Positions 978-29,374 of a DNA stretch of 64,000 bases are shown here, in pieces. The first letter of the stretch is position 1, and each line of letters begins with the position of its first letter. The notes below the pieces were generated by a model. That model ran no database searches. It was not told the origin of the DNA and saw only the letters and a program-made list of their open reading frames with translations. The position numbers and the translations under genes were made by a program. The stretch is from contig CAYYMM010000001.1 in the NCBI GenBank assembly GCA_964472395.1, positions 36,069 to 100,068 on the forward strand, read 5' to 3'. Source of the DNA: an uncultured bacterium. GTDB lineage: Bacteria > CSSED10-310 > CALFER01.

Positions 978-2198
978 ATGCTGTTCAGCATCCGCCCGTT
1001 CTCGAATACCGATGTCTGGACCTGCGGCGATTACGGCAACATCCGACATTTCAACGGCTCTTCCTGGACACTCGAAACCATGCCGACTCTCACTACCCTC
1101 AACGCCATCGACGGCGTCGCGACGAATGATCTCTGGGTCGCCGGCAGCAGCGGATTCATCGCCCATTACGATGGATCAGTCTGGACGCAAGTCAGCAGCG
1201 GCATCACGGACGATATCCAGGATCTTTTTGTCGTGAGCACCGACGAAATCTACGCGGTCGCATACAGCGGAAAAGTGCTGCGATACACCGGCATCAAATG
1301 GGATATGTACCAGTCTCCATCGATCGGGGATTTCGAAGGGTTTGCGCTCGATCCGGATTCCGATACCGCCCTGACCTGCGGTCTGGCCGGTGTCTTCATG
1401 GAACTGGATCTTACGTTCCCGACTCCGACCGCGACACCGGACATCACCGCGACCCCATCTCCGGGATCGACGTCGACACCGGCACCGACCGCACCACCCA
1501 CCTCGACATATACAGCTGCACCGACGTCGACCCGAACCCCCACACCCACCCGGACGCCGACCGGCACGATATCCCCTCCTCCTCCAACCGTCTCGCCGAC
1601 TCCACCTCCGCCGACCGCGACAGCCAGCGCCACGGCGACACGAACACCGACCGCAACCATTCCTCCAACCGCAACACCGCAACCGCCGACCGCAACGCAA
1701 ACCGCAGAGCCGACCGGCACTCCGACATTCACACCTGAGGCGACCCAAACGCCTGAACCGGCGACACCCACCTTCAGTCCGACGGCCATGCCGACCGGGA
1801 CACCGACCGACGGTCCGGTTCCGACGGAAACGCCGCTGCCGGATCGATCCTTCACGCTGATACTGGACGATCGCGATCTGGCTGCCGGAGACCGTTTCAA
1901 CCTGCATTTTGAACTGGTCAATCGGTCCATGCCGGCCTGTTCTGCGGATGTATATATCCTTCTGGACGTAATGGGCCAGTACTGGTTCTGGCCGTCCTGG
2001 GTGTCAGACCGCGAAGGCTCGGACAGCCGGCGGTATAACGTGCCGGAAAACGGACGTGTGGACGAAGCGGCGCTGTCGTTCGACTGGCCGGCGGGAACGG
2101 GATCAGGAACGGGGCTTCTGTTCTGGGGTGCGATGTTCGATGCGGGAACCTGGAATCTGATCGGGAACATTCAGCGGATCGAGTGGTCGTATTCCTGA
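978..2198 (+). CDS. Continuation of the beta-propeller repeats, then a ~140-aa Pro/Thr-rich linker, then a conserved ~115-aa C-terminal domain shared with two other proteins in the window. No signal peptide of its own.
   Basis: ORF track. Same frame as 12..965. Repeats DVWTCGDYGNIRHFNGSSW and LWVAGSSGFIAHYDGSVW. PT linker at about 1413..1841. C-terminal domain 1842..2198 is homologous to 37278..37634 and 58733..59086. Confidence 0.6.
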   Translation: MLFSIRPFSNTDVWTCGDYGNIRHFNGSSWTLETMPTLTTLNAIDGVATNDLWVAGSSGFIAHYDGSVWTQVSSGITDDIQDLFVVSTDEIYAVAYSGKVLRYTGIKWDMYQSPSIGDFEGFALDPDSDTALTCGLAGVFMELDLTFPTPTATPDITATPSPGSTSTPAPTAPPTSTYTAAPTSTRTPTPTRTPTGTISPPPPTVSPTPPPPTATASATATRTPTATIPPTATPQPPTATQTAEPTGTPTFTPEATQTPEPATPTFSPTAMPTGTPTDGPVPTETPLPDRSFTLILDDRDLAAGDRFNLHFELVNRSMPACSADVYILLDVMGQYWFWPSWVSDREGSDSRRYNVPENGRVDEAALSFDWPAGTGSGTGLLFWGAMFDAGTWNLIGNIQRIEWSYS

Positions 2199-2801
2199 TC
2201 AGACCCTGCGCCAGGCTCTGGTTTTGCGCTCGCGGATCTGACGGACGATATCCGAGGAATCCGATACCGGCTCGGGAAAGAACGTCGCCGCGCGGCCGAT
2301 CGATCCATGGGCCGGTCCATGTTCGTCCGATCCCGCCAGTTCGGCCAATCCGAGTTCCCGAGCGGTCAACACATTCCGAATTTCGTAGGACGCGCGCCGG
2401 GCGTTGTAGACTTCGATACCCTGAGCACCGGATTTCAGGATATCCAGAGATCCGACCCGGTAATGCCTCGAAAATGCATGCGCCACCACCGTGATGCCTC
2501 CGCGGCTCTCGGCGCATCGTGTCAGCGCCGACGGGTCGGTGAACCGGGGCAGATCCCCCTGGAGACCATTGAACACGAGCATGTGGATGGAATCGAATAT
2601 CAGTTCAGCACCCGACAGGATCAGGAACGGCGGGAGAGACTCGCGCAGCGCCGCCAGCTCGGCATCCGTCCACCGGTAGGCATGATCGGTGAAAACGACT
2701 CCGTCCAACCCTGCATCGATCGCAGATCGGACGATGTCCTGCGCACAGAGGCGCGCATCCTTCGAATGTTCTTTCGTGTGAACATGAATATCGATCAGCA
2801 T
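2199..2801 (-). CDS. PHP-domain metal-dependent phosphoesterase
   Basis: N-terminal MLIDIHVHT motif and His/Asp pattern typical of the PHP (polymerase and histidinol phosphatase) family. 200 aa. Confidence 0.7.
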   Translation of the reverse strand: MLIDIHVHTKEHSKDARLCAQDIVRSAIDAGLDGVVFTDHAYRWTDAELAALRESLPPFLILSGAELIFDSIHMLVFNGLQGDLPRFTDPSALTRCAESRGGITVVAHAFSRHYRVGSLDILKSGAQGIEVYNARRASYEIRNVLTARELGLAELAGSDEHGPAHGSIGRAATFFPEPVSDSSDIVRQIRERKTRAWRRV

Positions 2802-2820
2802 CGGGGTTAGAAACTCGCGC

Positions 2821-3222
2821 TCAGATCGTAACCGGATTCGACGAATTCCCGACGACGCGGACGAGAAGCCGTTTCAGATCGGCGATGGCGAAGGGTTTGG
2901 TGATGAAATGGATCGCGCCGGCTTCGATGGTTTTCCGTCGGATCGCCATGTCGTCGACTCCGGAGAGCACGATGACGGGGATATCCCGGAGCTTCGGATC
3001 GGATTTGATGCGTTTGAGAAGATCCATGCCGTTGATATCGGGCAGAAACAGGTCGAGCACGATGCCATGGATATCGAGATTCGTGACGGATTCTTCGAAG
3101 TCGACCGCCGATGGGCAGTTGACGATGCGGAACCCGGGATCGTTTTCGAATCCGGCGGACATAATTTCTCCTACGAATTCGTCATCATCGACGATCACGA
3201 TGTTCAACGCCTGTCCGGTCAT
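2821..3222 (-). CDS. Single-domain response regulator (CheY-like receiver)
   Basis: Acidic pocket in IVIVDDDE, phospho-acceptor Asp in VLDLFLPDINGMD, and KP in ITKPF. 133 aa. Its start overlaps the upstream Hpt ORF stop by 4 nt. Confidence 0.8.
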   Translation of the reverse strand: MTGQALNIVIVDDDEFVGEIMSAGFENDPGFRIVNCPSAVDFEESVTNLDIHGIVLDLFLPDINGMDLLKRIKSDPKLRDIPVIVLSGVDDMAIRRKTIEAGAIHFITKPFAIADLKRLLVRVVGNSSNPVTI

Positions 3223-3767
3223 TTTCCCGGGTCTTTCTGTCTGAGAATCGCTCGAAGATCCTGCATGAAGCCCTCCCAGTCAGAGGGTGCAAAAAGAGGG
3301 CCAGTTTCGGGTGAGCGGGCCGCTTCCTGGCCGATCCGGCGGGTGAGCTCCTCCAGATATGCCCGGGCGGAATCCGGCAGGCCGGTCTCGGCGGCCTCGA
3401 GCAGGATCTGTTCGGCGAGGGCGGCGATATCTGAGAGAGCCTGCATTTGCATCATGGCAGCATTGCTTTTGAGATTATGATATTTGCGGGCCGCGGTGCG
3501 CAGCGGCGGTTCGGAATCCGGCTGGACGGGCGTCGATTCGTTCAGGCACAGGAGGATGACCTGCAGACTGTTCTGGAGTTGCGTCAGGAAAAAGGGCTGG
3601 TAACGATCGATGTTCAGAATCACCTTCCGGTATATCGGGGCGCTGGCGTGCCTGCACCCCATTGCCCGGGCGCAAAGCGCGCGGGCTACGAACGGGTTTG
3701 CAGGGACTATATAGAATTTTGCGAATGAAGCCAACATCAATATGTGGGGGGAACGGGGCGGATGCAT
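3219..3767 (-). CDS. Hpt (histidine phosphotransfer) domain protein. The true start is probably internal.
   Basis: Motif YHNLKSNAAMMQMQALS resembles the Hpt H-x-L-K-G-S-S-x-x-x-G signature. Translationally coupled to the downstream receiver gene. Confidence 0.5.
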   Translation of the reverse strand: MHPPRSPHILMLASFAKFYIVPANPFVARALCARAMGCRHASAPIYRKVILNIDRYQPFFLTQLQNSLQVILLCLNESTPVQPDSEPPLRTAARKYHNLKSNAAMMQMQALSDIAALAEQILLEAAETGLPDSARAYLEELTRRIGQEAARSPETGPLFAPSDWEGFMQDLRAILRQKDPGK

Positions 3768-4362
3768 ACTATTGGATGGAGCTGTCGGCGATCAAGCGTA
3801 CCCGGGAGCGGGCGGCTTGCTGGCGCGCGCGGTAACCGGTTGATTTTTCTTTGAATCCTTCGGGGATCCGGAGTATACTCGGAAACTCCAGGACCATTCC
3901 GCGCGACAACGGGGAGGTTGGATTGAGCGATTTTTTCCGGGCGTGCATGCCAATTTCGGTCATGAAGAACGCGTGCAGCGGTCTGTCCGAACGCCCCGAT
4001 GATTCGACTCGATCCAGCTATTGGGGTAGTCTCGATCGACAGTTCCATCCGTTGTGGAATGCGGCTGTTTTGGAGCCTGCGCACCGTTTTTTGTCACTCC
4101 ACGAACGCAATTTTGTCAATCCGAACGGGTTGAAAAGGGGTGTGGCGATTCTTACAATGGAAGGGTCGGTATCGAGCGCGGGGGGGCATCGCGGCTATAT
4201 GGTTGAAAAATCGGGATTTTCGAAGAATTCGGGGTCGTTGTGTCGAATCGATCGCCCTTATCGATCACTTCGGAATGATTTTTGCATTTTACCGTGTGCT
4301 TTGAGGGGAGCAGAATCCCTTTTTTCGTGTTCACCCAACCTAACCTTATGGGAGGAAAATGT

Positions 4363-7300
4363 ATGAGGAAAGCGTTACTTTTTCTGACGGTTGCCATGAT
4401 GATGGCGACCGCGAGCTACGCGCAGACGGCTCTGCCATGGTCATGCGATTTCGCGACGGATGACTGCGGAGCGATCTACGAAGATGATGGCACTTCGTCA
4501 TCATGGGCTCGCTCCACCAGCAGCGGTTGCGCCGCACCAGGTATGTACCACGGTTACAACGGAGCCCACTATGACATCGATTATGTTGTCTGGGGGCCGT
4601 TCACAACCCCCACAGCGGATGTGGTCAGCCTGAGTTATGATCTGTCGATTTCGACTTGGGGCGACGAAGTTACAGTCATGTACATCACGAACCTGTATCT
4701 GGATCCCAACACCAATCCAGGTTCATGGATCGTGGCTGATGGGCCCTACTCGGCTTCAGCAGCCTGCGTCGCACACAGTGCCGATTTATCTGGTGTCCTC
4801 GGGTCAACTCAATTTTGGATCGCTTTCAGATACCAGGGACAAGACGCCTATTATGCTTATATCGACGATCTAAGCCTGACCTTCTCTTCTGGTCCGACCG
4901 CAACACCGACGAACACACCGGTTCCTGCTCCTGGACAGAATTGCGCCAGCGCAATCGCCATCAACATCCCCGGATCTCTGCCTTATTCACAGGCCGGCAC
5001 GAACTGCGGACTTCTGAACGACTATGCCGCAACCTGCCTCGGCAGCTATGACGGCGGCGAAGACATCATCTATCAGCTGGTTGTTGCAACAGACACGAAT
5101 GTTGAGATTTCATACACAACGACGGATACCTGGACCGGCATCCTTCTTGATGATTCCTGTCCTCCGGACCCGACAACGTGTATTGATATCGCAACAAGCA
5201 GTGCAGCCGGAACGATTACACTCGGTCAAAACCTCCTTGCTGCCGGCACCTACTACCTCATGCTCGACACCTATCCAACTCCGGACTGCATCTCCAGCTT
5301 CACACTCAACATCACGAGCGCTGGTGCTACAGCCACACCGACACCGACTGCGCCTCCGGCCGGCCCCGGCGATAGTTGCGGGAATGCGCTCCCGATCGCC
5401 AGCGGCGACTGTCTGCTCGGCGACTACACCGGCATGACCAACAACTTCGACTGCGGCGGCACCGGTGGCGTTGCTGGCGGCCCCGACATGGTCTACACCT
5501 TCACTCTCGCCGATTCCAGTTATGTTCACATCCTCGCCGAATCCGCCGGGGATATCGACCTTGCAGTGAGCAATGTCTGCGATGCCTCCACGGCGACATA
5601 TCTCTGCGCCGATACATCAGGCAGCTCAACATCAGCCCAGACATCCTGCGGCGACACCATCACCCCAGGTACATACGGATTCCACACATTCTACCGCCTG
5701 CTTCCAGCCGGCACCTACTACATCTGGCTTGATTCCTATTCCGGTGAGCTCGGTGACGAATTCGCCATTGAAATGTTCGCAACACTTGAATCCGTCACAT
5801 GCGCCGGTTGCCCGATAGGTGGTACACCCGAAGGCGAACCGACCTGCGCGGCCGAATATGTGGATACCTTCAACGCGGGTTGTAACGCCGCCACACCGGT
5901 CTTCACAACCATCACGCCCGGAACGACGATCTGCGGCCAGACCGGTACCTACACAGTCGGAACAGCCAACACACGCGATACCGACTGGTATCAGATCACC
6001 GTTGCATCTGCGGCTGACCTGATCGTCGAAGTTGCAGCCTCGTTCCCCAGCACGACCCTGATCGTTCCGGCCGTTTGTCCGGTCGCTTCGATCCTGGCCA
6101 GTGGCTCGGATACTCGTTGTCCGGGTTCTTCGTACGAAGTGATCGCGACGGTTGCCGCCGGTGATTACTATATCATTGTGCTTCCCACTGTTTTCACGGA
6201 CATCCCCTGCGGCAGCGCGAGCCGGTACTGGATGGCGGTTACAACCGATGTTCCGTCGACACCGACACCGACACCGACTTCCTGCGCATCGTGCCCGCCG
6301 GGCGGCACTGCCGAAAACGAACCGCTGTGCGGTCCGGAGTACGACGATACATATAACGGCGGATGTAACTCGACTGTTCCCGTGTTCCAGACCATCACCA
6401 ACGGTCAGACAATCTGCGGCGAAGCAGGAACATTTACATTCGGCACCGACAACTATCGCGACACCGACTGGTTCGAGTTCACCCTGACGGAAACGTCGGA
6501 TGTGACGTTCTCGGCTTACGGTGATTTCCCGATTCTGGCCTGGCTTGCTGCAACAGAAGATTGTGTCAATTACGACTTCACGCAGTATGACGACGCCGAC
6601 ACATGCGAAACCGCGACAACCATCCGGTACACAATGCCTGCGGGCGATTACATTGCGATCGTAATGCCCAGTGTATTCGAAGGCATTCCCTGCGGTGTCA
6701 AGTACGTGGCAACACTGACCTGGGGTCCCGCTGCACCGACACCCACACCGACCGTCACTCCTCCGCCTGCTGGTCCTGGCGACACATGCCTCAATCCGAT
6801 CACCATCAATTGCGGCGACTGCGTGCTCGGCACAACCGTCGGGATGAACAACAACTTCAGTTGCGGTGGTCTCGGAGCCGGCCCCGATGTGGTCTACACC
6901 TTCACCCTGGCAGAACCTCAGACCATTCATATCATCGCCGAGAGCGATGAAGATCTCGATTTCGCGGTCACCGACGTCTGCGATGCCTCCACTGCCACCT
7001 TTGCATGCTCGGATCGCCTGGGCACACCTCCGGTGGCTGCGTCTTGCGGCGAAGCCATCACTCCGGATACCTGGGGATACTTCGACTACTCAGCAACAGT
7101 GGATGCCGGCACCTACTACATCTGGATCGACACCTACAGCGCCACTGGCGGCGGTGCCTTCGCTCTCGAACTGCTCTGCTCGGATCCTCCGTCTTACGTC
7201 CTGGAATGCCCGGCCACCTCTCAGCTCTCTCAGCCGGTCAACCCGCTGGATCTCGGATTCAACGGCTTCTCCTCCGATCTGGGCGGCGATTTCCGGTACT

Positions 7301-7806
7301 TCGATGATTACTCTGTGACCGATCCGGTTTGCTGGGTCAAGTTCTGGGGTCTCTACACAGCCGGAAACGACACAGACTTCACGATCGAATTCTGGACCGA
7401 CAACGCCGGACAGCCCGGCACCCTGACCAACAGCTATCCGATTACCGGCGCGACACCGATCGACACCACCTGGACTGCCTTCGGCTACCCGATCTATGAA
7501 TACTTCGTCGAACTGCCGACTTGCGAAGCACAGCTTGCCGGCTGGATCAGCATTCAGGGCGCGAGCAACGGTTCGACCTTCTACTGGGCCGTGAATTCGT
7601 CAGCCACCGGTGCGGATTGCTACGAGTATCAGGTATCCACCACAACGTGGACTCCGGATGTCTATGATCTCGCATTCTGCCTCGGCAATGCCGAACCCCC
7701 GACCCCGACTCCTCTGCCGGTTCCGACTTCCGGTCCGTTCGGCCTGGGCGTCATGATCTTCGCGATCAGCGCACTGCTCGGCCTGAGTGTTCTCCGGAAG
7801 AAGTAA
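4363..7806 (+). CDS. Large secreted multi-domain protein: signal peptide, N-terminal jelly-roll (MAM-like) region, then at least five PPC (bacterial pre-peptidase C-terminal)-like domains in two sub-families, C-terminal PT linker, single TM helix and RKK tail.
   Basis: ORF track 4282..7806. Start chosen at ATG 4363, 6 nt after GGAGGA (4351..4356). Signal peptide MRKALLFLTVAMMMATASYAQTA. Repeated modules GDSCGNALPIASGDC...AGTYYIWLD and CPIGGTPEGEPTCAAEY...RDTDWYQIT occur twice each. C-terminus ...PTPLPVPTSGPFGLGVMIFAISALLGLSVLRKK. Confidence 0.8.
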   Translation: MRKALLFLTVAMMMATASYAQTALPWSCDFATDDCGAIYEDDGTSSSWARSTSSGCAAPGMYHGYNGAHYDIDYVVWGPFTTPTADVVSLSYDLSISTWGDEVTVMYITNLYLDPNTNPGSWIVADGPYSASAACVAHSADLSGVLGSTQFWIAFRYQGQDAYYAYIDDLSLTFSSGPTATPTNTPVPAPGQNCASAIAINIPGSLPYSQAGTNCGLLNDYAATCLGSYDGGEDIIYQLVVATDTNVEISYTTTDTWTGILLDDSCPPDPTTCIDIATSSAAGTITLGQNLLAAGTYYLMLDTYPTPDCISSFTLNITSAGATATPTPTAPPAGPGDSCGNALPIASGDCLLGDYTGMTNNFDCGGTGGVAGGPDMVYTFTLADSSYVHILAESAGDIDLAVSNVCDASTATYLCADTSGSSTSAQTSCGDTITPGTYGFHTFYRLLPAGTYYIWLDSYSGELGDEFAIEMFATLESVTCAGCPIGGTPEGEPTCAAEYVDTFNAGCNAATPVFTTITPGTTICGQTGTYTVGTANTRDTDWYQITVASAADLIVEVAASFPSTTLIVPAVCPVASILASGSDTRCPGSSYEVIATVAAGDYYIIVLPTVFTDIPCGSASRYWMAVTTDVPSTPTPTPTSCASCPPGGTAENEPLCGPEYDDTYNGGCNSTVPVFQTITNGQTICGEAGTFTFGTDNYRDTDWFEFTLTETSDVTFSAYGDFPILAWLAATEDCVNYDFTQYDDADTCETATTIRYTMPAGDYIAIVMPSVFEGIPCGVKYVATLTWGPAAPTPTPTVTPPPAGPGDTCLNPITINCGDCVLGTTVGMNNNFSCGGLGAGPDVVYTFTLAEPQTIHIIAESDEDLDFAVTDVCDASTATFACSDRLGTPPVAASCGEAITPDTWGYFDYSATVDAGTYYIWIDTYSATGGGAFALELLCSDPPSYVLECPATSQLSQPVNPLDLGFNGFSSDLGGDFRYFDDYSVTDPVCWVKFWGLYTAGNDTDFTIEFWTDNAGQPGTLTNSYPITGATPIDTTWTAFGYPIYEYFVELPTCEAQLAGWISIQGASNGSTFYWAVNSSATGADCYEYQVSTTTWTPDVYDLAFCLGNAEPPTPTPLPVPTSGPFGLGVMIFAISALLGLSVLRKK

Positions 7807-8050: not shown

Positions 8051-10564
8051 CTAGCTGAACAATTCCGGTTGAACGGTCTCGGACTCATCACCGCCCATGT
8101 CACCGTTCTCATCACCGCGGTCTTCGCCGCCTTCACGTTCGACGACACGCGCCACCGCAACGATTTTCGCGCCTTCACGTGCGATGTCCTGCAGCATGAC
8201 ACCCTGTGTCGATCGGCCGATCGACCGGAGGCTTTCCATGTCGACCCGGATCCGGATCAGTTTCCCGTGCGATGTCACCATCAGAAACTCGTCGTCTCCG
8301 AACGATTGCAGGATGCCCATGACCGGGCCGTTTCGTTCCGTGATCTTCATGTTGATCAGGCCCTTGCCGCCGCGTGTCTGTGTCCGGTATTCCTCGATGC
8401 TCGTTCGCTTCCCGTAGCCGTTTTCGGAAACGGTCAGCATAAGAGCGCCTTCATAGAGCACTTCCATGCCGATCACATGATCGCCGGATTCCAGCCGGAT
8501 GCCGATCACGCCGCGCGTCGCCCGGCCCATCGGGCGCACATCGGTCTCTTTGAACCGGATGCTCATGCCCTGATGAGTCGCGATGAAGACGTCCTGTTCG
8601 CCCGATGTCAGGCGGACACTGATCAATTCATCGTCTTCATCGATGATGATGGCTTTGAGTCCTCCCGAGCGATTGGTGTCGTATTCGACGAGGGATGTTT
8701 TCTTCACGATGCCGTTGCGCGTGCCCATCATGATGAATTTGCCTTCTTCGAATTTCTTGATCGGCAGAATCGCCCGGACGTTTTCGTCGGATTCGAGCGA
8801 CAGGAGGTTTTTCAATGAACTGCCGCGCGCCGTCCGGCTGCCCTGCGGTAACTGATAGACCTTCAGTCTGTAAACGCGTCCCTTGTCGGTAAAGATCAGC
8901 AGGATATCGTGCGTGCCGGCGAAGATCAGATGTTCGGTGAAATCCCCTTCCTTAGGGATAATGCCGGTCGCGCCCTGCCCGCGCCGTTTCTGTGCTCGAT
9001 AGAGCGACAGCAGCGTCCGTTTCGCATAGTTTTCGTGCGTCACGAACACCACCATGTCCTCTTCCGCAATCATATCCTCATAGTCGATCTCACTGTCCGC
9101 ATCCAGAATCAGCGTCCGGCGCGTATCGCCGAATTTCGCCTTGATTTCGAGCAGTTCCGTCTTGATCAGATTCATCAGCAGTGCTTCGGATTCCAGAATC
9201 GCACGCAACCGGCTGATCTCTTTAAGGAGTTCAAGGTACTCCTCGCGAATCTTGTCGCGTTCGAGACCCGTCAGCCGCTGGAGTCGCATATCGAGAATCG
9301 CCTGTGCCTGAACCTCGGACAAGCCGAACTGCGTCTGCAGTCCGTTCCGGGCTTCCTCGACCGTTTTCGATCCCCGAATCAGCGTGATGACCGCATCGAG
9401 ATGATCCAGAGCGATGATCAGGCCTTCCAATATGTGCGCCCGGTCTTCCGCCTTCCGGAGGTCGTATCGGGTGCGTCTGACCACCACCTCCCGCCGGTGC
9501 AGAATGAAATGATCCAGCATTTTCTTCAGCGACAGCACTTCCGGGCGGCCGTTGACGAGCGCGACCATGTTGACGCCGAAATTGAGCTGCAACTGGGTGT
9601 GTTTGTATAGCTGGTTCAGAATCGCCTTGGCGATCTGATCCTTCTTGAGTTCGATGACGACCCGGATGCCTTCGCGTCCCGATTCGTCGCGAACGTCCGA
9701 GATTCCCTCGATTTTTTTATCCTTGACGAGTTCCGCGATTTTGGTGAGAAGATCGGCTTTGTTGACCTGATATGGCAGCTCGGTGACGATGATGTCTTCC
9801 TTGCCGGCCTTCTCACGATGCTCGATCACCGCCTGTGCGCGGATCGTGATGGAACCCCTCCCGGTCATGTAGGCCTGGCGGATCCCGTCTCGTCCGTAGA
9901 TCATCGCCGCCGTCGGGAAATCCGGTCCGGTGACGATCCGCATGATGTCGAGATCCGTGTTGTCGGGATTGTCGATCATGTGGATCAGGGCATCGATGAC
10001 TTCGTTCAGGTTGTGCGGCGGGATGTTGGTCGCCATACCGACGGCGATGCCGCTGGAGCCGTTGACGATGAGATTCGGGAAGGCGGCTGGCAGGACATCG
10101 GGTTCATGGGTCGTGTTGTCGTAATTGGGGACGAATGTGACGGTTTCCTTTTCGAGATCCCTGAGGATTTCCTCGGAGATCTTCGCCATTCTGACTTCCG
10201 TGTATCGCATGGCGGCCGGCGGATCGTTGTCGACCGATCCGAAGTTGCCCTGGCCGTCGACGAGCGGGTATCGCATGGAGAATTCCTGGGCCATTCGCAC
10301 GATCGAATCGTAGATCGCCTGATCGCCGTGCGGATGGTAATTGCCCATGACTTCGCCGACGACTTTCGCCGATTTGCGGTAGCCTCGGGTGGGGCCGAGA
10401 CCCATTTCGTGCATGCCGAACAGAATCCGGCGATGCACCGGTTTCAGACCGTCGCGGACATCGGGGAGCGCGCGCCCCACGATGACGCTCATCGCATAAT
10501 CGATGAACGCCGACCGCATCTGATCTTCAATATTGACAGGAATCTTGTTTTCCGGAATCAGCAT
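8051..10564 (-). CDS. gyrA: DNA gyrase subunit A
   Basis: 837 aa. Motifs [25 protein letters not shown] and active-site AAMRYTE. C-terminal beta-pinwheel repeats and an acidic tail. ATG preceded by GGAG. Confidence 0.97.
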
Positions 10565-10579
10565 GAGAAGCTCCTGGTG

Positions 10580-14174
<3,595 letters not shown>

Positions 14175-14180
14175 AGAGAA

Positions 14181-15284
14181 TCAGACGATCATCGGCATGA
14201 CGATCGCCAGATACCGTAGCTCAGATTCAATGCCCGGCCGGAATTCCACCGGCCCTGACGGATTGTTCACGCGGATCGCGACATCCTCGGCATCGATCGT
14301 TTTGAGCAGTTCCAGAAGATACGTGACATTGAAACCCACAGTGAACGGCTCTTCGGTATACGCGATGGGAATCTGATCGCGGGCTTCTCCGAATTCAGGG
14401 GTATTGGCGGAAATCACGAGCATGTTGTTCTCAATGTTCATCTTGATTCCACGCGCTTTGATATCGGAAAAGAGCGATACGCGACGGAGCGACAGCATGA
14501 GGCTTTCCTTGTTCACTTTAATGATCAGACGGCATTCCTTCGGAATGACGATTGAATAATTCGGAAACATGCCTTCGACCAGCCTGGATATAACCGTTTC
14601 GCAACCGACTTTGAACACGAGATGATTGTTGTTGATGCCGAAACGAAATTCCTCTCCTCCTGCTCCGACCATCCGTTGGATTTCATGGACCGCCTTCTGA
14701 GGGATGATGACCTCGAGCGGAGTCATATTGAGTGTATTCGGTGTTTCAACATAAGCCAGACGATGGCCGTCCGTCGCGATCATCCGAACCGCTTCGTCAT
14801 CCACTTTGAACAAGACGCCTCCGAGAACCCGCCGGTTCTCGTCGTGACTGACCGCGTAGACCACTTTTTTGGTCAGATTATCCAGCAGATCACCAGGAAC
14901 GATGGTGAGGTTGCTTTCGTCCACATCCGGAAGCTTCGGGTAATCCACATCAGAAGAGCCGAAAAGACGAAACTCCGAAGATCCGCAGGAGAGCTTGATC
15001 CAATTGTTCTCCTCGAGTTTGAACTTCACGAGATTTTCCGGAAGTTCTTTCAGGACTTCGTAGAGTTTTTTTGCCGATACGAGAATACTTCCTGCTTCCG
15101 GAACATCGCATCCGATGAGATCACGGATACCGACCTCGAGGTCTGTAGCGATGACTTCGAGATTGCCTGAGTTGGCTGTCAGTTTGACGTTGTTCAGAAA
15201 TGGGTTGGTACTGCGTCTTTCGATGATCGATTGAACCTTCTGAATACTGGTCTGAAATGCTGATTTTTCGATACTGAATTCCAT
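14181..15284 (-). CDS. dnaN: DNA polymerase III beta sliding clamp
   Basis: 367 aa. Three-domain clamp with an N-terminus typical of DnaN (MEFSIEKSAFQTSIQKVQSII...). Confidence 0.95.
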   Translation of the reverse strand: MEFSIEKSAFQTSIQKVQSIIERRSTNPFLNNVKLTANSGNLEVIATDLEVGIRDLIGCDVPEAGSILVSAKKLYEVLKELPENLVKFKLEENNWIKLSCGSSEFRLFGSSDVDYPKLPDVDESNLTIVPGDLLDNLTKKVVYAVSHDENRRVLGGVLFKVDDEAVRMIATDGHRLAYVETPNTLNMTPLEVIIPQKAVHEIQRMVGAGGEEFRFGINNNHLVFKVGCETVISRLVEGMFPNYSIVIPKECRLIIKVNKESLMLSLRRVSLFSDIKARGIKMNIENNMLVISANTPEFGEARDQIPIAYTEEPFTVGFNVTYLLELLKTIDAEDVAIRVNNPSGPVEFRPGIESELRYLAIVMPMIV

Positions 15285-15770
15285 GATTGATCCTCCGGAA
15301 ACTTATCTGGTCATGTATAGCAGAAATCAGATGCGAAGTAAATGAAATCGTGCGTTTTTTTCTCTTCCCCGTCCACTCTCCGAAGAAGCTTCTAAGATAT
15401 GAAAATGGAGAGTTCATCGAAGTAGTCATAGAGGCTGTCGATAAGTTGAAAAGTGACTGGACTGATTGAAAATCAATCTTTTTTATCGCTCATAATTGTT
15501 CGCAAGTCTTACTGTTTTACTCCGGGTTGTGCACAAATCATCATCATTTTCGAACGTGTGTCGTTATGCACATGTTGTGAACGGGTTATTGACATCACTC
15601 TGTTGAAAATTTGATTAATGCATTCTGAAATAATACTGTTTGTCTCGGTCGCGACAGGAGGTCATTTTTTTCTTGACACGATATTTCAAGTGTTTGCGAG
15701 ACATTGTTTACGCACAGAGTTATAGACAGATGTTTATTGTTAAATTAAATATCTGAATAATAACACTTTA
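15285..15770. promoter_or_regulatory. AT-rich intergenic region upstream of dnaN. Candidate oriC and dnaN promoter region, with DnaA-box-like 9-mers.
   Basis: GC content drops sharply relative to flanking DNA. Near-consensus DnaA boxes TGTCGATAA, TTATGCACA, TTGTGCACA, TTATTGACA and TTATAGACA. AT-rich candidate unwinding tract taaattaaatatctgaataataaca. The position upstream of dnaN is classical for bacterial origins. Confidence 0.45.
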
Positions 15771-17009
15771 TTGAGATATGAAAGTGCGAAAAATCTGATT
15801 TTGTCAGGTATCGGAACGGGGTTGGAAAGTGCGATGGGAAAAAGAACTGATTTCATCGATAGTTGCAAACCAGTACTGGGAATTCTTGCGGAGACTACCG
15901 AAGAACACACCAAAAGACTGGGTTCTCAGACAAACATGCTCGAAGAAATGTGCCGATATGCTGAAAACACAGGGCTCCGCATCATCGTCTCCAGTATCCG
16001 GAACTGCGATGAAATCATTGAAAACAAAGCAGTTCCAGGCCTGTTTCTGCATGAAGAAAAATGGTGTCAAGCGGTTTTCTCACCCCCGTCGCTCTGGTAC
16101 GACCGCGTTTATTCGGATCTCGCACACAGAGAAACTGATCTCATACAATGTCGATCGAAACTCGTCCAATCCAATCGAGTCGCCTTTCTGAATCATCCGG
16201 CCATGACATCGATTCTCGGAGATAAACTCGCATTCTCACAATTCTGTGCGCGTCACGCGCTTCCAACCCCGGTCACAGAACTGCTTGACCCGGGACTTTT
16301 CAGGAATCCATCTCGTCAATCCGGCCGATTCATCGCCAAACCGCGCTTCGGAAGGAAGGGAATCGGGATCATCCGCTGCGCTTTTTCCAGTGACGGCCGC
16401 GGAACCTGCTCGACACACGGCAGGCAAGTTTCGACGCGAACGCATTCCGAATCAGACGGTGTGCTGTCGGAGTTGATCCGGCAGGTTGGATTGAGTCGGG
16501 AAGATTACATTATTCAGGCTGAGATTCCCGCTGCCAAAGTAGATGGAAGATGGTGCGACATCCGGTGTATGGTACAGCGAATGAACCGGCATGACCGGGC
16601 CGTTTCCGGGATTGCGGTCCGTGTATCGTCCCATGACCGCGTCACGCCGAATCTCGACCGCGAAGGAATTGCTGTTCCTTTCGAGATGTATGCTCGCCTG
16701 GCCTTTCCGGATCTGGATGGTTCCGTGCTTCGTGAAAAAGTCGAATCGACAGCGCTTCGAATGTTTGATGCCATCGAATCCGAAACGGGACCAGCAGCGG
16801 AAGCGGGGATCGATCTGCTGATCGACCCTCATGGCTCAGTTCATCTGATCGAAGCGAATGCGAAGCCCGGTCGGATTATCTATCAGCGTCTGAGTTCCGG
16901 CTTTTATTTGACAGAAGCGGAAAAGACTCGCTATTTAGAGATGCGTCGGAACACGATCCGGAACCCGATCCGGTATGCACGCCATCTGCTTGAAGGAAGC
17001 ATTGATTGA
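15771..17009 (+). CDS. ATP-grasp family protein (YheC/YheD- or RimK-like ligase). Start uncertain: the ORF-track start is TTG, with a possible ATG near 15834.
   Basis: 412 aa. C-terminal ATP-grasp signature GRFIAKPRFGRKGIGI and an acidic residue in LIEANAKPG. Confidence 0.6.
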   Translation: MRYESAKNLILSGIGTGLESAMGKRTDFIDSCKPVLGILAETTEEHTKRLGSQTNMLEEMCRYAENTGLRIIVSSIRNCDEIIENKAVPGLFLHEEKWCQAVFSPPSLWYDRVYSDLAHRETDLIQCRSKLVQSNRVAFLNHPAMTSILGDKLAFSQFCARHALPTPVTELLDPGLFRNPSRQSGRFIAKPRFGRKGIGIIRCAFSSDGRGTCSTHGRQVSTRTHSESDGVLSELIRQVGLSREDYIIQAEIPAAKVDGRWCDIRCMVQRMNRHDRAVSGIAVRVSSHDRVTPNLDREGIAVPFEMYARLAFPDLDGSVLREKVESTALRMFDAIESETGPAAEAGIDLLIDPHGSVHLIEANAKPGRIIYQRLSSGFYLTEAEKTRYLEMRRNTIRNPIRYARHLLEGSID

Positions 17010-21147: not shown

Positions 21148-22575
21148 ATGACTCGACTCGTTGCCGTCTTCCTTCTCACGATAGTCCCGTTGTCCGCATC
21201 CGCGGATTCCTGGCCCGCCGAGTCGTGGAGTGATGCCGTGAACATGACCGCCCTGGATTCAGAGTTCCAGGAGGATCTCAGCGGAGCGTTCTGGAATCCC
21301 CAAACCCGCGTTCTCTGGGTCTGCCAGAACGGACTCGCCAAAATATGGGCCCTTGTCGAAGACGGAACCGGAGGCTTCGTTGTCCGGACGGATGGATCCG
21401 GGATGCGGTACGAGTGGGATCTCGGCATGCAGGACCTCGAAGATCTGACACAGGTGAATCTGGCGCAGGATGTGATCTATGCGATCGACGAAGGCGCGGG
21501 CACCATCTTTTCGGTCGATCTGAGTGCTCCGGACACCCACCTGATCCTGCACTCGTGGAATGTATCATCCTTCTTGCCTGAATATGTGTCCGGATACGGA
21601 CCTGAAGGGATCGCATTTGTCCCGGACGAATGGCTCGCGTGCCGGCAGTTCATGGATTCGACCGGGCAGCGCCGACTCAGTCAGAAAGGAATGAACGGAC
21701 TGATGTTCCTGGCGCATCAGCAGGAAGGACGGATCTATGTGTTCGATCTGAACCCGGACCTGAACAACGATGTCTGGCTGGTCGGAGAGTATGATACCGC
21801 GCGCAATGAAAGTTGTGCGGCGGGGTTTGATCGCGATCTGGGACTGCTCTGCATCTGGCACAACACCGGCTCGAACTATCTCGAATGGACCGATCTGACC
21901 TCGATCCCGGTATCCGGTTCGATCCGGCAGTTCAGAATGGTTCAGGAGTTCACCGGGCCGATCAGCGGGAATCTGGAGGGATTCGCAGCCGCGCCTCAAG
22001 CCCCGAGCGCTCCGGACTCGTGGTGTTTCATCACACGCGATGACGGAGGTTCAGACTCGCTCAGATGGTTTCGATCTTTTCGGCTGCCGGATGTGACGCC
22101 TCCTGCGTTTCTGAATGCGACGCCGCGGATTCGTGAGGTTTCGGCCGAATCAGTCACAATTGGTGTCGAGTTGAATGAACCGGGCCGTCTGTATCTGGTC
22201 GTATTGGCGGATGGTGCGCCGGCTCCGGATGTCCGGCATGTCAGAGGCGGACGGGATGCGTCGGGTAATCCGCCGATTGCAGAGGGATTCATCGACGTCA
22301 CGGCATCAGGGGTTGAAGCGACAGGCGAATTTCAAGGATTGGCGCCAGCGACGGCGTACGATGTGTTTTGTGTGGCGGAAGATCAGCGCGGTATTCTTCA
22401 GAATGACGTGACGTTCTTGAACGCCGTTACGTCCGACCCGGTCGCGTCTCCGACACCTCCCATCACGCCGACTCCTCAAGCTGTCCCGACCGGGCAGGCC
22501 GGAACTGTGCCACTGATCATGCTTCTGATGTCAGGGATCATCCTCGCCGGGCAGATCAATCGACGATGCGGATGA
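21148..22575 (+). CDS. Secreted protein (possibly a beta-propeller or phytase-like fold) with C-terminal PT linker, TM helix and basic tail
   Basis: 475 aa. Signal peptide MTRLVAVFLLTIVPLSASA. C-terminus ...PTPQAVPTGQAGTVPLIMLLMSGIILAGQINRRCG. Confidence 0.6.
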   Translation: MTRLVAVFLLTIVPLSASADSWPAESWSDAVNMTALDSEFQEDLSGAFWNPQTRVLWVCQNGLAKIWALVEDGTGGFVVRTDGSGMRYEWDLGMQDLEDLTQVNLAQDVIYAIDEGAGTIFSVDLSAPDTHLILHSWNVSSFLPEYVSGYGPEGIAFVPDEWLACRQFMDSTGQRRLSQKGMNGLMFLAHQQEGRIYVFDLNPDLNNDVWLVGEYDTARNESCAAGFDRDLGLLCIWHNTGSNYLEWTDLTSIPVSGSIRQFRMVQEFTGPISGNLEGFAAAPQAPSAPDSWCFITRDDGGSDSLRWFRSFRLPDVTPPAFLNATPRIREVSAESVTIGVELNEPGRLYLVVLADGAPAPDVRHVRGGRDASGNPPIAEGFIDVTASGVEATGEFQGLAPATAYDVFCVAEDQRGILQNDVTFLNAVTSDPVASPTPPITPTPQAVPTGQAGTVPLIMLLMSGIILAGQINRRCG

Positions 22576-22578
22576 TAA

Positions 22579-23226
22579 TCAGGAAGCGACGGAATCTGAC
22601 GCGAGCATACGACGAATCCCAATGGTCAGAATGACGATTCCCGGCATCTGGATGAGGTGAAACAAGCCATTATGATCGAATTGCCCGATCAGATGAAGAC
22701 CGGCGGAAGGGATGCTCTGGACGATGGCGGCGAACAGCGAGATCACGATGGACAGGCTGATTGCACCGGCGCCATCGCGTCTGTCGTGCGTCAACTTCAG
22801 ATAGGCTGCGAGAGAGACGAGCAGGCCGGCCGCTTCATACACGATGAAAATGAGAAACGAGTCCGGGAACACGATCGTACCGAACCAGAACACGATCCCC
22901 AGCAAGAGAAACCATCGGATGGGGAGCGGTTTCCCGATGAAGTCTCGCGCAGCGGCAGCCGTGAACAGAGCGATCGCCAGTCCCAGGCTGGCATATAGAA
23001 GCGACCAGAGAAACGAGTGTAGAGCGGGCGGGACGATTAACCCGTGGGTAATGGCACCCAGGATGCTTGCGGCTGAGAGGGATCCGAACATCGCGATCCA
23101 GATCCGTTTCTGACCGACGCAGGTTGTGTGGATACGACGGATGGGAAGGATGCAGCCCAGCGTGAGCAGTCCCAGGATGGCGTCGGTTGCGGCGGTGGAG
23201 AGTTCGGTGGGCGAAGAAGCGAGCAT
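22579..23226 (-). CDS. Polytopic membrane protein of unknown function (~6 TM helices)
   Basis: 215 aa hydrophobic ORF. Divergent from the LTD-protein gene. Confidence 0.4.
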   Translation of the reverse strand: MLASSPTELSTAATDAILGLLTLGCILPIRRIHTTCVGQKRIWIAMFGSLSAASILGAITHGLIVPPALHSFLWSLLYASLGLAIALFTAAAARDFIGKPLPIRWFLLLGIVFWFGTIVFPDSFLIFIVYEAAGLLVSLAAYLKLTHDRRDGAGAISLSIVISLFAAIVQSIPSAGLHLIGQFDHNGLFHLIQMPGIVILTIGIRRMLASDSVAS

Positions 23227-23370: not shown

Positions 23371-26300
23371 ATGAAAGGCAGATCGATATTATCCCTTGCG
23401 GCATTACTCATGTTTTTTGCCGCCGCTGCCCACGGGCAGACCATCGCCAGATGGGATTTCGAAGACGAAAATCTGATCGTCGATGAAGGCTCCGGAACGC
23501 TCGCTCGCATTGGTGGCGGAGCTGTGAGCTATGTGACGGGAAATCCGGGGCGAGCAGTGACCAGCAACAATTATCCCACAGCCGCCAGTCCGGACGCTAC
23601 CAACTGCTGGCAAATCAATATCAGCACATTGAGCTTCTTCGACATTTTTCTGAGTTTCGATGAAACTCGATCATCCACTGGAATTCGTGCATTCCAGGTG
23701 TTTTACAGCATCGACGGAGGCAGCAACTATACGGCAGCCGCTCCTGCGACAACCGTTCCCGATGATTCGCTTTGGCGGTCTCAGTCGATCGACATGTCTG
23801 CGATCTCTGAAATCGAGAATGCCGCCAGTGTTATTTTGCAGATCAGACCCTATTCTGCCGAAGCGACGACCGGCACGTGGCGGCTGGATGACATCCTGAT
23901 CTCACAAGGCGCGCCCGCGGCCACGAGCACGCCGACATCTCCCTCTGCCACCAACACACCGACACCGACCAACACGACCGGCGGACCGACCAGCACACCG
24001 ACCAATACCCCTCCCAGTTCATCGTCCATCATCATCAACGAAGTCGACTCCGATACCCTCGGAACAGACGTCGCGGAATTCATTGAATTATACGACGGCG
24101 GCACAGGCAATACATCTTTGAATGGACACGTCGTCGTACTATTCGACGGCAGCACCGACACCAGTTATCGTGCTATCGATCTCGATGGATATACCACCAA
24201 CGCCCAGGGTTACTTCGTCATCGGTTCGACCGGCATGGGCACACCGATCGAGATCAGTCCGGGAGGATCCGGATGGTTGCAAAATGGTGCGGATGCCGTT
24301 GCGGTGTATCTCGGACATGACACAGCATTCCCGTCCGGGACAGCCGTTACGACCACAAATCTCGTGGATGCGCTGGTGTATGACACGGACGACGCGGACG
24401 ATGCCGGTCTGCTCGATCTGCTGAACGCCTCGGAACCGCAGATCAACGAAAACATCAACCTGAATAAAGACACTGAATCCATGCAGCGATGCCCGAACGG
24501 CACAGGCGGCGCGCGCAATACGTCGACATACACGCTCCTGGCGACCACCATGGGTGTCGAAAACACCTGCGTGATTCCTCCGACCAACACACCGGCGAAC
24601 ACGCCGACTCCAACCAATACTTCAGGCGGCCCGACAGATACACCGACCGTGACTCCGACGAATCCTCCGATCAGCGCCATAAAAATCAACGAGGTGTTTG
24701 TCAATTCTCCGGAAACAGACATCCACTGTTTTGTGGAATTGTATTATCCTGGTGGCAACCTGAGTCTGAACGGTTATTCACTCGTTGGCGTCAACGGAAA
24801 CGGTGGAGCCGATTATGTAACGATCGACCTGTCAACCTACTCGATTCCGGCGGATGGTTTCTTTGTAATCGCTCAGGATACCGGCGTTGCGAATTACGAT
24901 ATGATCGCCGCTTCGGTTGATATGCAAAACGGTCCGGATAGTATTCAACTGCGCGCGGGTGCGGTTGTGGTTGATGCCATGGGGTATGGCAACTTCAGCT
25001 CTGCTGTGTTTGCCGGTGAAGGCACACCATGCCCGATTATACCACCTGAGTATTCCTACTCGCGTATTCCCGACGGCGAGGATCTCGATGACAATGTCGT
25101 CGATTTCTTCATCGGCGACCTGACAGCCGGTCTTCCCAACGTGGAAGCAGTCGTTCCGACGGCGACACCGACCGGTTCAACACCGGTTCCCACCAACACT
25201 CCGACCTCCTCCGGACCGACCAATACCCCGACCATCACCCCGACCTCAGGCCCGATCCCGCCGATCAAGATCAACGAAATTTTCGTCGATCCGGTGAGTC
25301 TTGACGACGATCTGGAATGGATGGAAATCATCAATACATCTGATTCTCCGGTTGATGTTACCGATGTGATCATCCAGAGCACGACGGCGACCGGTCAGGT
25401 CTACACCGATCGCGTCATTCTGCCCGCGCTGATCATCCCGGCCAACGGATATCTGCTCGTTGCGGAATCACTGGTCGATGTGACATCGGTCCCCGGAACG
25501 ACCGTCATCTATCAGCCGACGTCCCCGGATCTGGATATCGATATGCAGAACGGATCGTCGCACACCGAAGGCGTGCGGATCGTGACCGGCGCGCATGACG
25601 TGATCGATACCGTGATCTATTCAAACCCGAACGAACCCGATCTGATCCCCGGCGATGAACCGGGCGATCCGTACGGTGAGCATTTCGCGCTGCGACCGCT
25701 CAGCGGCAACAGTCTTGCGAGATGCCCGGACGGTCAGGACACGAACCTCTGCGATGAAGATTTCATCCGCCGGACAACGGAATATGTCACCATCGGCGAT
25801 ATAAACAACTGCGAAGTTCCGACCCCGACTCCGACTCCCACCGGCCCGACCCCGACTCCGCCTCCGACATCCGCCATCAAACTGAATGAAGTCTACATCA
25901 ATCCGCCGGGAACGGATGTGGGCTGCTTCGTCGAACTGTATTTCCCGGGCGGCATGGCGCTGACCGGATACAGCATCGTCGGAATCAACGGGTATGACGG
26001 ATCGGAATACATCACGATCGATCTGTCCACCTACTCGATTCCGACCGACGGATATTTCGTCATCGCCCAGGATACCTCGGTGGCCAATTACGACGTGATC
26101 GATACCCGGATCAATCTCCAGAACGGTCCTGACAGCATCCAGATCAAGTACAGCGGTGTGGTGGTGGATGCGATGGGGTACGGCGATTTCACGGGTATGA
26201 TTTTCGGTGGCGAGGGAGATCCGGCTCCGGCATACTTCACGGGACCGTATTCGCACTCGCGGATTCCGGATGGCGACGACACGGAAGACAACCTGACCGA

Positions 26301-26466
26301 CTTTGTCGCCGGCGAATTGACATCCGGTCTGCCGAACATCGAGACGGTTGTGCCGACACCGACTCCGCCGCCTCAGGTGCCTGCATCGAGCCCCGCCGGT
26401 CTGGCCGTCATGATCATCATGATTTCGGTCCTGATCGGTTGGAGTCTTGCCCGCTCGCGCAACTGA
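23371..26466 (+). CDS. Secreted protein with four lamin-tail-domain (LTD) repeats, a conserved N-terminal domain, PT linkers, a C-terminal TM helix and basic tail
   Basis: 1031 aa. RBS GGAGG 8 nt upstream. Signal peptide MKGRSILSLAALLMFFAAAAHG. LTD signatures begin IIINEVDSD...FIELYDGG, IKINEVFVNSPETDIHCFVELYYPGG, IKINEIFVDP...WMEIINTSD and IKLNEVYINPPGTDVGCFVELYFPGG. C-terminus ...VPASSPAGLAVMIIMISVLIGWSLARSRN. Confidence 0.8.
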   Translation: MKGRSILSLAALLMFFAAAAHGQTIARWDFEDENLIVDEGSGTLARIGGGAVSYVTGNPGRAVTSNNYPTAASPDATNCWQINISTLSFFDIFLSFDETRSSTGIRAFQVFYSIDGGSNYTAAAPATTVPDDSLWRSQSIDMSAISEIENAASVILQIRPYSAEATTGTWRLDDILISQGAPAATSTPTSPSATNTPTPTNTTGGPTSTPTNTPPSSSSIIINEVDSDTLGTDVAEFIELYDGGTGNTSLNGHVVVLFDGSTDTSYRAIDLDGYTTNAQGYFVIGSTGMGTPIEISPGGSGWLQNGADAVAVYLGHDTAFPSGTAVTTTNLVDALVYDTDDADDAGLLDLLNASEPQINENINLNKDTESMQRCPNGTGGARNTSTYTLLATTMGVENTCVIPPTNTPANTPTPTNTSGGPTDTPTVTPTNPPISAIKINEVFVNSPETDIHCFVELYYPGGNLSLNGYSLVGVNGNGGADYVTIDLSTYSIPADGFFVIAQDTGVANYDMIAASVDMQNGPDSIQLRAGAVVVDAMGYGNFSSAVFAGEGTPCPIIPPEYSYSRIPDGEDLDDNVVDFFIGDLTAGLPNVEAVVPTATPTGSTPVPTNTPTSSGPTNTPTITPTSGPIPPIKINEIFVDPVSLDDDLEWMEIINTSDSPVDVTDVIIQSTTATGQVYTDRVILPALIIPANGYLLVAESLVDVTSVPGTTVIYQPTSPDLDIDMQNGSSHTEGVRIVTGAHDVIDTVIYSNPNEPDLIPGDEPGDPYGEHFALRPLSGNSLARCPDGQDTNLCDEDFIRRTTEYVTIGDINNCEVPTPTPTPTGPTPTPPPTSAIKLNEVYINPPGTDVGCFVELYFPGGMALTGYSIVGINGYDGSEYITIDLSTYSIPTDGYFVIAQDTSVANYDVIDTRINLQNGPDSIQIKYSGVVVDAMGYGDFTGMIFGGEGDPAPAYFTGPYSHSRIPDGDDTEDNLTDFVAGELTSGLPNIETVVPTPTPPPQVPASSPAGLAVMIIMISVLIGWSLARSRN

Positions 26467-28567: not shown

Positions 28568-29374
28568 ATGAGTTCGACGATACGTGACGAAGCGAAAACG
28601 GAATTGCAGATGCATCTGACCGACCAGAAAAAATCCGCGCTGCGGAAGTATCAGGACATGGTCATCGGGTCGACCCGCCTGATGGATCTCTTCCTGTACG
28701 AGTGCGTCATGTTCATCTGCAATGCATTCCCCGGTGCAATCGGGTACATGCTCCGGAAAAAACTCTATCCGCTCATCCTGGGCCATGTCGGACCGGGAAC
28801 CGTCTTCGGCCGGAACATGACGATCCGGCACGGCCGGAAGATTTCGATCGGAGCGCGCGGCATCTTCGACGATCTGGTCGTTCTGGACGCCAAGGGAGAC
28901 GGAAACCGGGGTATTGTGATCGGCGACGATGTGATTATCGCACGCAATACGGTGGTGTCGTGCAAGGGCGGGGACATCGAGATCGGCAGCAATTCGAATA
29001 TCAGTTTGAATTGCATGATTCATTCCGAAAAATCCGTCCGGATCGGTCCGCGGAACCTGTGGGCGGCTTACTGTTATATCATCGGGGGCGGCAGTCATGA
29101 CTTCGAGCGGACGGATGTGCCGATCATCCAGCAGGGTTCGCATGTCGAAGGGATTGTGATGGACGAAGACATCTGGCTCGGGGCCGACGTCAAGATTCTC
29201 GATGGCTGCCACATCGGTCGAGGAGTCGTGATCGGTGCCGGGTCGCTCGTGACCAAGGACATTCCGGAATACAAGGTCGCCATCGGGTCGCCGGTACGGA
29301 TCGTAAGGGATCGCACACGAAGTAACGGAAATGGACAAGAGCCTGCCGACCGGCCGGCGGCGGGGCAGGCATGA
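28568..29374 (+). CDS. Hexapeptide-repeat (LbetaH) sugar O-acetyltransferase, WcaF-like
   Basis: 268 aa. N-terminal membrane-proximal region similar to WcaF-type acetyltransferases, then hexapeptide repeats (IGDDVIIARNTVV, IGSNSNISLNCMI, IGRGVVIGAGSLV). Confidence 0.75.
   Translation: MSSTIRDEAKTELQMHLTDQKKSALRKYQDMVIGSTRLMDLFLYECVMFICNAFPGAIGYMLRKKLYPLILGHVGPGTVFGRNMTIRHGRKISIGARGIFDDLVVLDAKGDGNRGIVIGDDVIIARNTVVSCKGGDIEIGSNSNISLNCMIHSEKSVRIGPRNLWAAYCYIIGGGSHDFERTDVPIIQQGSHVEGIVMDEDIWLGADVKILDGCHIGRGVVIGAGSLVTKDIPEYKVAIGSPVRIVRDRTRSNGNGQEPADRPAAGQA

Follow-up and report, generated by a model that had tools for sequence, protein, structure and literature searches.

A candidate orphan C-terminal sorting signal on secreted proteins of the uncultured phylum CSSED10-310

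A 64-kb stretch of DNA from an uncultured bacterium (assembly GCA_964472395.1, contig CAYYMM010000001.1, positions 36,069 to 100,068; hereafter the window) encodes three secreted proteins, numbered 1 to 3 in their order along the sequence, whose C-termini share one layout: behind a proline/threonine-rich (PT) linker come a short motif, a single hydrophobic helix and finally a basic end. Profile and alignment comparisons show the tails of proteins 1 and 3 to be copies of a conserved C-terminal domain specific to the lineage, the candidate phylum CSSED10-310, and this domain looks like a new orphan protein-sorting signal of that rare phylum. We put at roughly 0.55 the probability that it is a sorting domain cleaved by a membrane transpeptidase, likely an XrtH-type exosortase with its gene in another part of the genome. 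Judged from sequence comparisons, the interpretation of the tail as a sorting signal is well supported.

The window holds 220 open reading frames (ORFs) of at least 80 amino acids (aa), only three of which were returned by a scan for non-polytopic products with a terminal hydrophobic helix and a basic cluster. These three lie exactly where the initial annotation had placed them, and the layout described there is common to all of them. Protein 1, which is identical to the database protein P0001, ends in EPPTPTPLP followed by VPTSGPFGLGVMIFAISALLGLSVLRKK and a stop codon; the corresponding ends are SPTPPITPTPQA followed by VPTGQAGTVPLIMLLMSGIILAGQINRRCG in protein 2 and VVPTPTPPPQ followed by VPASSPAGLAVMIIMISVLIGWSLARSRN in protein 3 (Table 1). 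A hidden Markov model (HMM) of the tail was trained solely on 18 tails from unrelated metagenome contigs, with the window tails left out. Tail 1 scored 41.5 bits against this model over its full length, the match reaching the C-terminus, and tail 3 scored 19.2 bits (model positions 2–30, ending one residue short of the C-terminus); eight tails from related loci scored 23.7–45.4 bits. The best of 8418 control ORFs, taken from 80 loci of other phyla, reached 8.2 bits, so the resemblance of tails 1 and 3 to the family is far beyond chance. These two tails can also be aligned to each other without gaps, with 50% identity over 30 residues. Tail 2 scored -1.5 bits and matched no NCBIfam or Pfam model, and its grouping with the other two is thus unsupported; an orthologue of its protein (P0198, 87% identical) has kept the same variant, VPTGQAGT. 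The proposal of a single tail recurring on three proteins therefore holds for proteins 1 and 3 but lacks support for protein 2.

The tail is also carried by homologues of the protein 1 passenger from other metagenome contigs: P0002 and P0003 (PVPASGP[VF]GLGVM...), P0006 (QVPASTPMGIGLMIAVLSALIV...), P0008 (PIPATGPAGIGLLLL...) and P0012 (PVPATGPVGLGLLIL...). It was found again in loci that had been fetched by their gyrA gene alone. A locus of a named CSSED10-310 metagenome-assembled genome (MAG; L008) encodes a protein ending in ...DIPTTGPVGLGILLLGLGALLGISSFRRK, and a syntenic locus (L006) has two tails, one tail gene being the neighbour of gyrA. Tails with the motif were absent from the other 78 gyrA loci, which represent other phyla and together span 1.25 Mb with 3522 ORFs. 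A degenerate DNA pattern, limited to the motif plus five hydrophobic helix positions and leaving the basic cluster and the stop codon unspecified, had no match in 2.9 million viral contigs and 23 matches in Joint Genome Institute (JGI) metagenome contigs. In 20 of these 23, a basic cluster and then a stop codon follow at the same distance, and tail 1 itself is matched by the pattern. With further look-ups, at least 28 distinct tails are now known. Their consensus is P-[IV]-P-[AT]-[TS]-G-P-x-G-[LI]-G-(hydrophobic)5-6-S-[GA]-L-L-G-x3-5-R-[RK]-K, and the start of the motif lies 28–29 residues from the stop codon in 24 of 29 tails. The motif first proposed, VP[TA][SG]xxxG, is too short, the fuller signature being [IV]P[AT][TS][G/S/T]PxG[LI][G/A]. 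Positions that the pattern did not impose are kept as well: S17 in 20 of 29 tails, [GA]18 in 23 of 29, and also L19/L20, G21 and the length. Pro and Thr make up on average 47.5% of the 20 residues upstream of the motif (28 members). According to the initial annotation, a generic membrane anchor would show neither enrichment nor a fixed motif position; the tail occurs on at least 28 proteins, at a constant distance from the helix and the stop codon, which favours the sorting-signal reading, and the family statistics support the view that it is more than a generic anchor. Tails may be nearly identical within a contig: in L092 (at 709 and 3825) the tail APIPTTGPMGIGIII[LF]ALSGLLSLSALRRRK occurs twice, on different passengers, and TGPAG is common to all three tails of L109 (4222..12856), a pattern that suggests concerted evolution inside the genome.

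Eight attributes that define a tripartite C-terminal sorting signal have been listed by Haft (bioRxiv 10.1101/2023.06.07.544157), and all eight are displayed by the tail family. HMM matches stop 0–1 residues before the end of the protein, with one exception in the lineage (L109, 6901..9621), in which a partial match ends 9 residues short of the C-terminus. The tail is present in multiple copies: two in the window, three in consecutive genes of L109, three on SWBY01009380.1, two in L006 and two adjacent ones in L095. An ungapped alignment of eight tails that had been found independently of the motif search has at least three invariant motif residues, P4, P8 and G10 (alignment numbering), with G12 nearly so. 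The motif is followed by a hydrophobic helix and a cluster of two to five basic residues. A Sec-type signal peptide, recognised by a heuristic and not by SignalP, is present on all members whose contigs include the N-terminus. The passengers are unrelated to each other, 23 proteins falling into eight similarity groups, and 184 of the 253 passenger pairs have no BLASTP similarity at 1e-5. Homologues of the passengers bear other endings. P0041, a homologue of the protein 1 passenger, has a true IPTL-CTERM domain (28.9 bits, cutoff 20.5), and other passenger homologues end in a dockerin or in the T9SS domain PF18962; among homologues of the protein 2 passenger, the tail of P0312 is PEP-CTERM-like (VPEPSVILL...) and that of P0322 is GlyGly-like. 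These comparisons show that the tail interchanges with known sorting signals among homologues.

The GyrA protein encoded in the window is 98% identical to that of an uncultured-bacterium MAG (CALFER010000059.1), 75% identical to that of 'candidate division CSSED10-310 bacterium Zod_Metabat.419', 74% identical to that of GCA_053939005.1 and at most 59% identical to everything else; by this marker, the window belongs to the candidate phylum CSSED10-310. This rare uncultured phylum is, by prediction, Gram-negative and has a GC content of 43–59% (PMC8248873). A diderm envelope is also indicated by locus L003, in which genes for BamA and TamB adjoin a substrate gene.

To go by profile searches, the tail domain is unmodelled and its nearest relative is IPTL-CTERM. 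The latter (TIGR04174/PF18203) we take to be the IPTLxxWG signal of exosortase H (XrtH). Twenty-six family tails were scanned in batch against the NCBIfam models and 10 were scanned individually; as controls, the IPTL_CTERM model recovered P0041 at the score given above and the PEP_CTERM model scored 39.2 bits on a synthetic consensus. IPTL_CTERM gave the most frequent and best near-match, in 9 of the 26 tails (best E 0.0014), and four of the 10 individual tails reached 18.3, 17.4, 16.2 and 15.7 bits against a cutoff of 20.5. All four alignments begin at the first residue of the motif, three of them spanning model positions 1–27 and one 1–26. The model 'midcut-by-XrtH' was a near-match in 5 of the 26 tails, its motif/recognition region scoring up to 19.9 bits. 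IPTL-CTERM and the CSSED10-310 tail share the tripartite layout, the spacing [IV]-P-[TA]-x-[SG]-x-x-G-[LI], the helix and the basic end. They differ in that L4 of IPTLxxWG is replaced by T/S and W7 by a variable residue, and in that the CSSED10-310 tail adds an invariant P6 and the helix pattern S-[GA]-L-L-G. The hosts differ too, IPTL-CTERM being found in beta- and gammaproteobacteria, and no XrtH was found in the substrate loci of CSSED10-310. The earlier statement that the tail carries no known motif was nevertheless too strong, given a full-length, in-register IPTL-CTERM alignment just under the cutoff and the resemblance of [IV]P[AT][TS]G to LPXTG.

The other known signals are more distant. 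PEP-CTERM, the exosortase signal (TIGR02595, XrtA/XrtB), has in common with the tail the V-P start, the helix, the Arg-rich end, the upstream low-complexity linkers and the many substrates per genome in environmental diderms, but the tail has no Glu in its motif and no P-E-P; the best E was 0.022, and one tail reached 15.3 bits against a cutoff of 16 through its helix only. VPXXXP-CTERM (archaeosortase B), whose VPxxxP can be read in tails 1 and 3, was rejected, with a match in 1 of 26 tails at E 6.4. Near-matches to VPLPA were weaker or partial, and the best E in a Pfam scan of the family tails was 0.079. WGxxGxxG-CTERM (NF038039) and, before myxosortase, MYXO-CTERM are comparable as short C-terminal homology domains that were defined by sequence and had no assigned enzyme; they differ in motif and in taxon, and the CSSED10-310 tail lacks an invariant Cys.

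Motif positions 1–5 read IPATG, VPATG, IPTTG or VPTSG, and the tail might therefore be regarded as an LPXTG variant, akin to the pilin motifs IPxTG and VPxTG; a sortase would cleave the bond joining Thr/Ser to Gly and attach the protein to peptidoglycan or another subunit. Like the tail, LPXTG signals (TIGR01167, PF00746) combine a Pro/Thr-rich spacer with a helix and a basic tail, and Pro/Thr-rich spacers before the motif, typical of the wall-spanning regions of Gram-positive surface proteins, count in favour of a sortase. The LPXTG_anchor model was a near-match in 9 of the 26 tails; its best E in the batch scan, 0.0031, may touch the cutoff, and individual tails scored 11.3–14.7 bits against a cutoff of 15.9. 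Most of these alignments cover only the helix and the basic end (model positions 12–34) and miss the motif, although one, at 14.6 bits, is in register (model positions 3–33). A sortase signal seems improbable: the invariant P6 and G8 are foreign to LPXTG signals, G5 is replaced by S, T or A in 6 of 29 tails, neither the TLxTC signature nor a Pfam Sortase domain occurs in the ~300 kb of substrate loci, and the lineage is, as described above, apparently diderm.

Another family of enzymes would have to be considered if the cut were made in the Gly-rich region (GPxG[LI]G or S-G), namely a rhombosortase-like, a CPBP/myxosortase-like or a wholly new protease. Small, helix-breaking residues abound in the motif and the helix (G5, P6, G8, G10, S17, G18 and G21), no known enzyme is seen nearby, and there are weak near-matches to GlyGly_CTERM (15.2 bits in one tail, cutoff 15.5) and MYXO-CTERM (18 bits, cutoff 20). 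Both alignments are, however, limited to the helix and the basic part, the motif has no invariant Cys, the hallmark of myxosortase signals (bioRxiv 10.1101/2023.06.07.544157), and no rhomboid or CPBP protein is found among the polytopic ORFs of the substrate loci, so that the chances of such a protease are judged to be slim. A bolder proposal, and a long shot, is that an undescribed class of enzyme, distinct from sortase, exosortase/archaeosortase, rhombosortase and CPBP/myxosortase, handles the tail. In that case the anchor might be supplied or modified by the sulfatase-family and PMT-like membrane enzymes found repeatedly next to tail genes (see below), and CSSED10-310 would, if this were true, be the home of a fifth kind of C-terminal sorting machinery.

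The preferred explanation, a sorting domain cleaved by an exosortase, can be set out as follows. The N-terminal signal peptide would route the protein through the Sec system, and the C-terminal helix would serve as its stop-transfer anchor. With the basic cluster left on the cytoplasmic side, the motif would be kept just outside the inner membrane, at its outer face. There, a polytopic membrane transpeptidase would recognise the motif, cut off the helix and the basic end, and transfer the passenger, PT linker included, to an acceptor (a lipid or an envelope component), leading to surface display. The most likely candidate is deemed to be a member of the exosortase family, of the XrtH/IPTL-CTERM type, whose gene would lie in another part of the genome; the diderm host and the near-match to IPTL-CTERM point to it. 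Literature searches on IPTL-CTERM and XrtH brought up no helpful information about this enzyme.

Several points weigh against this explanation. The enzyme search covered the window and ~300 kb of tail-bearing loci by Pfam annotation, scans of all polytopic ORFs and a search for TLxTC, and neither yielded a gene for an exosortase, sortase, rhomboid or CPBP protein. The view that no sorting enzyme is recognisable in the window was thus borne out, none of its polytopic ORFs (Table 1) being an exosortase, rhomboid or CPBP protein. The window tails match no existing NCBIfam or Pfam sorting-domain model above cutoff; they match none below it either (E ≤ 10), and the individually scored family tails all remain under the curated cutoffs of the sorting-domain models. 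Because the DNA pattern fixed motif columns 1–10 of the metagenome matches, the invariance of these columns is in part circular. The association of IPTL-CTERM with exosortase H is taken from NCBIfam naming and from the model name 'midcut-by-XrtH'. Lastly, a conserved anchor module that is never cleaved would yield identical sequence statistics.

Such a plain type-I anchor would tether the PT-linked passengers to the inner membrane and would have been spread from gene to gene inside the lineage by domain shuffling or gene conversion. It would account for the failure to find a processing enzyme near any of about 30 substrate genes, for the near-identical tails on different passengers of one contig (L092, L109), which are what recombination predicts, and for tail 2, a helix outside the family with the same layout in the same organism. 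Between genomes with GyrA proteins only 74–75% identical, however, ordinary anchors do not retain an extramembrane motif of 10 residues, with P, P and G invariant, together with a constant spacing to the stop codon. The passengers (LTD, PPC, GEVED and MAM) are of cell-surface types and have homologues with bona fide sorting or secretion tails, and an inner-membrane tether in a diderm would trap them in the periplasm. The display of all eight of Haft's attributes is a further argument against an uncleaved anchor, which is therefore regarded as rather unlikely.

Table 1. Tail-bearing proteins, their parts and polytopic membrane proteins of the window (coordinates in the window; TM, transmembrane segments).
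Feature	Coordinates	Strand	Remarks
Substrate protein 1, 1147 aa	4363..7806	+	Cys-rich PPC/GEVED-like passenger repeats, PT linker, family tail
Signal peptide of protein 1	4363..4425	+	Sec-type, MRKALLFLTVAMMMATASYAQ
PT linker of protein 1	7693..7719	+	EPPTPTPLP
Family tail 1	7720..7803	+	Motif, helix, RKK
Motif of tail 1	7720..7749	+	VPTSGPFGLG
Hydrophobic helix of tail 1	up to 7794	+	
Basic cluster of tail 1	7795..7803	+	RKK
Stop codon of protein 1	7804..7806	+	
MntP, 205 aa	18571..19188	-	5 TM; overlapped by longer ORF calls; counterpart in L007 is Pfam Mntp (manganese efflux pump)
Membrane protein, 178 aa	20610..21146	+	No Pfam/NCBIfam family
Protein 2, 475 aa	21148..22575	+	Beta-propeller-like passenger, PT linker
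Signal peptide of protein 2	21148..21204	+	Sec-type, MTRLVAVFLLTIVPLSASA
PT linker of protein 2	22447..22482	+	
Tail 2	22483..22572	+	VPTGQAGTVPLIMLLMSGIILAGQINRRCG; tripartite layout, not a detectable member of the tail family
DUF6962 membrane protein	22579..23226		
Substrate protein 3, 1031 aa	23371..26466	+	Four Lamin-tail (LTD) domains (2.2e-29) split by PT linkers, family tail
Signal peptide of protein 3	23371..23436	+	Sec-type, MKGRSILSLAALLMFFAAAAHG
PT linker of protein 3	26347..26376	+	VVPTPTPPPQ
Family tail 3	26377..26463	+	VPASSPAGLA, helix and RSRN
Flippase-like LPG_synthase_TM protein	29371..30366		Polytopic
PMT_2 glycosyltransferase	37716..39254		Polytopic

Two membrane proteins encoded next to tail genes of the window, the 178-aa protein and the DUF6962 protein, had been suggested as candidates for the sorting enzyme. 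Both were rejected, as neither occurs in any other tail-bearing locus examined. The 178-aa protein has more than 1400 homologues (173–195 aa) across phyla, which are 61–69% identical even in Chloroflexi (Bellilinea) and lie in contexts without tail genes. The invariant elements GE, IKYGF, FGPQMM..HR..DN and WFW.PAHT.TF.LP in the aligned homologues place it in a family that is strongly conserved and uncharacterised. A single base separates the stop codon of the 178-aa protein from the start of protein 2. The MntP protein was identified through its counterpart in L007, a locus of a closely related MAG. Near tail genes of other loci, two polytopic proteins without a Pfam or NCBIfam match were seen, one of 590 aa with 7 TM (L096, 5704..7476, minus strand) and one of 725 aa with 13 TM (L098, 6806..8983, plus strand), and neither recurs among the loci examined.

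Three kinds of genes recur in the neighbourhood of the tails. Genes of the sulfatase family (PF00884) lie directly downstream of tail genes in two independent metagenome loci; their sites are L092 3991..5361, L093 1204..2625 and L098 4860..6851, and 43366..45144 and 47629..49740 in the window. B12-binding radical SAM genes are found in the window (at 31426, 39251 and 45141) and in L088 and L098, and PMT_2-type glycosyltransferases in the window (Table 1) and in L088, beside a tail gene. These neighbours might modify the PT linkers or the anchor, or they may merely be abundant paralogues of the lineage.

Other large secreted proteins carry a second C-terminal domain, which has no TM helix, contains ...GL.F[WY][GA]A[ML]... 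and has an aromatic end (..IQRIEWSYS, ..DTWTFGWAE or ..QIISWSYMD). It was seen in the window (978..2198, 35256..37634 and 56117..59086), in L110 (1..1845 and 2342..4957) and in P0004, which is 58% identical to the passenger of protein 1 and in which this aromatic-ended domain replaces the TM tail. The lineage thus seems, from these endings, to use two alternative C-terminal modules.

The genes gyrA, gyrB, recF and dnaN follow each other on the minus strand (8051..15284), and this is probably the origin region, with a low-GC (0.46) intergenic stretch at 15285..15770. No dnaA is visible in the window, and the next gene, at 15771..17009, falls into one group with an ATP-grasp (YheCD-like) gene of L006 and not with dnaA.

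C-terminal sorting signals reveal which proteins are displayed at the surface and point to the enzyme responsible, and each signal newly defined so far has yielded an enzyme family (sortase, exosortase, archaeosortase, rhombosortase and myxosortase). The CSSED10-310 tail would mark large adhesin-like or enzyme-like surface proteins, with LTD, PPC, GEVED and MAM domains, in a phylum that has barely been described. It is missed by current annotation pipelines, and a model of it would improve the annotation of MAGs. Such a tail model is also a ready query for phylogenetic profiling towards the cognate enzyme.

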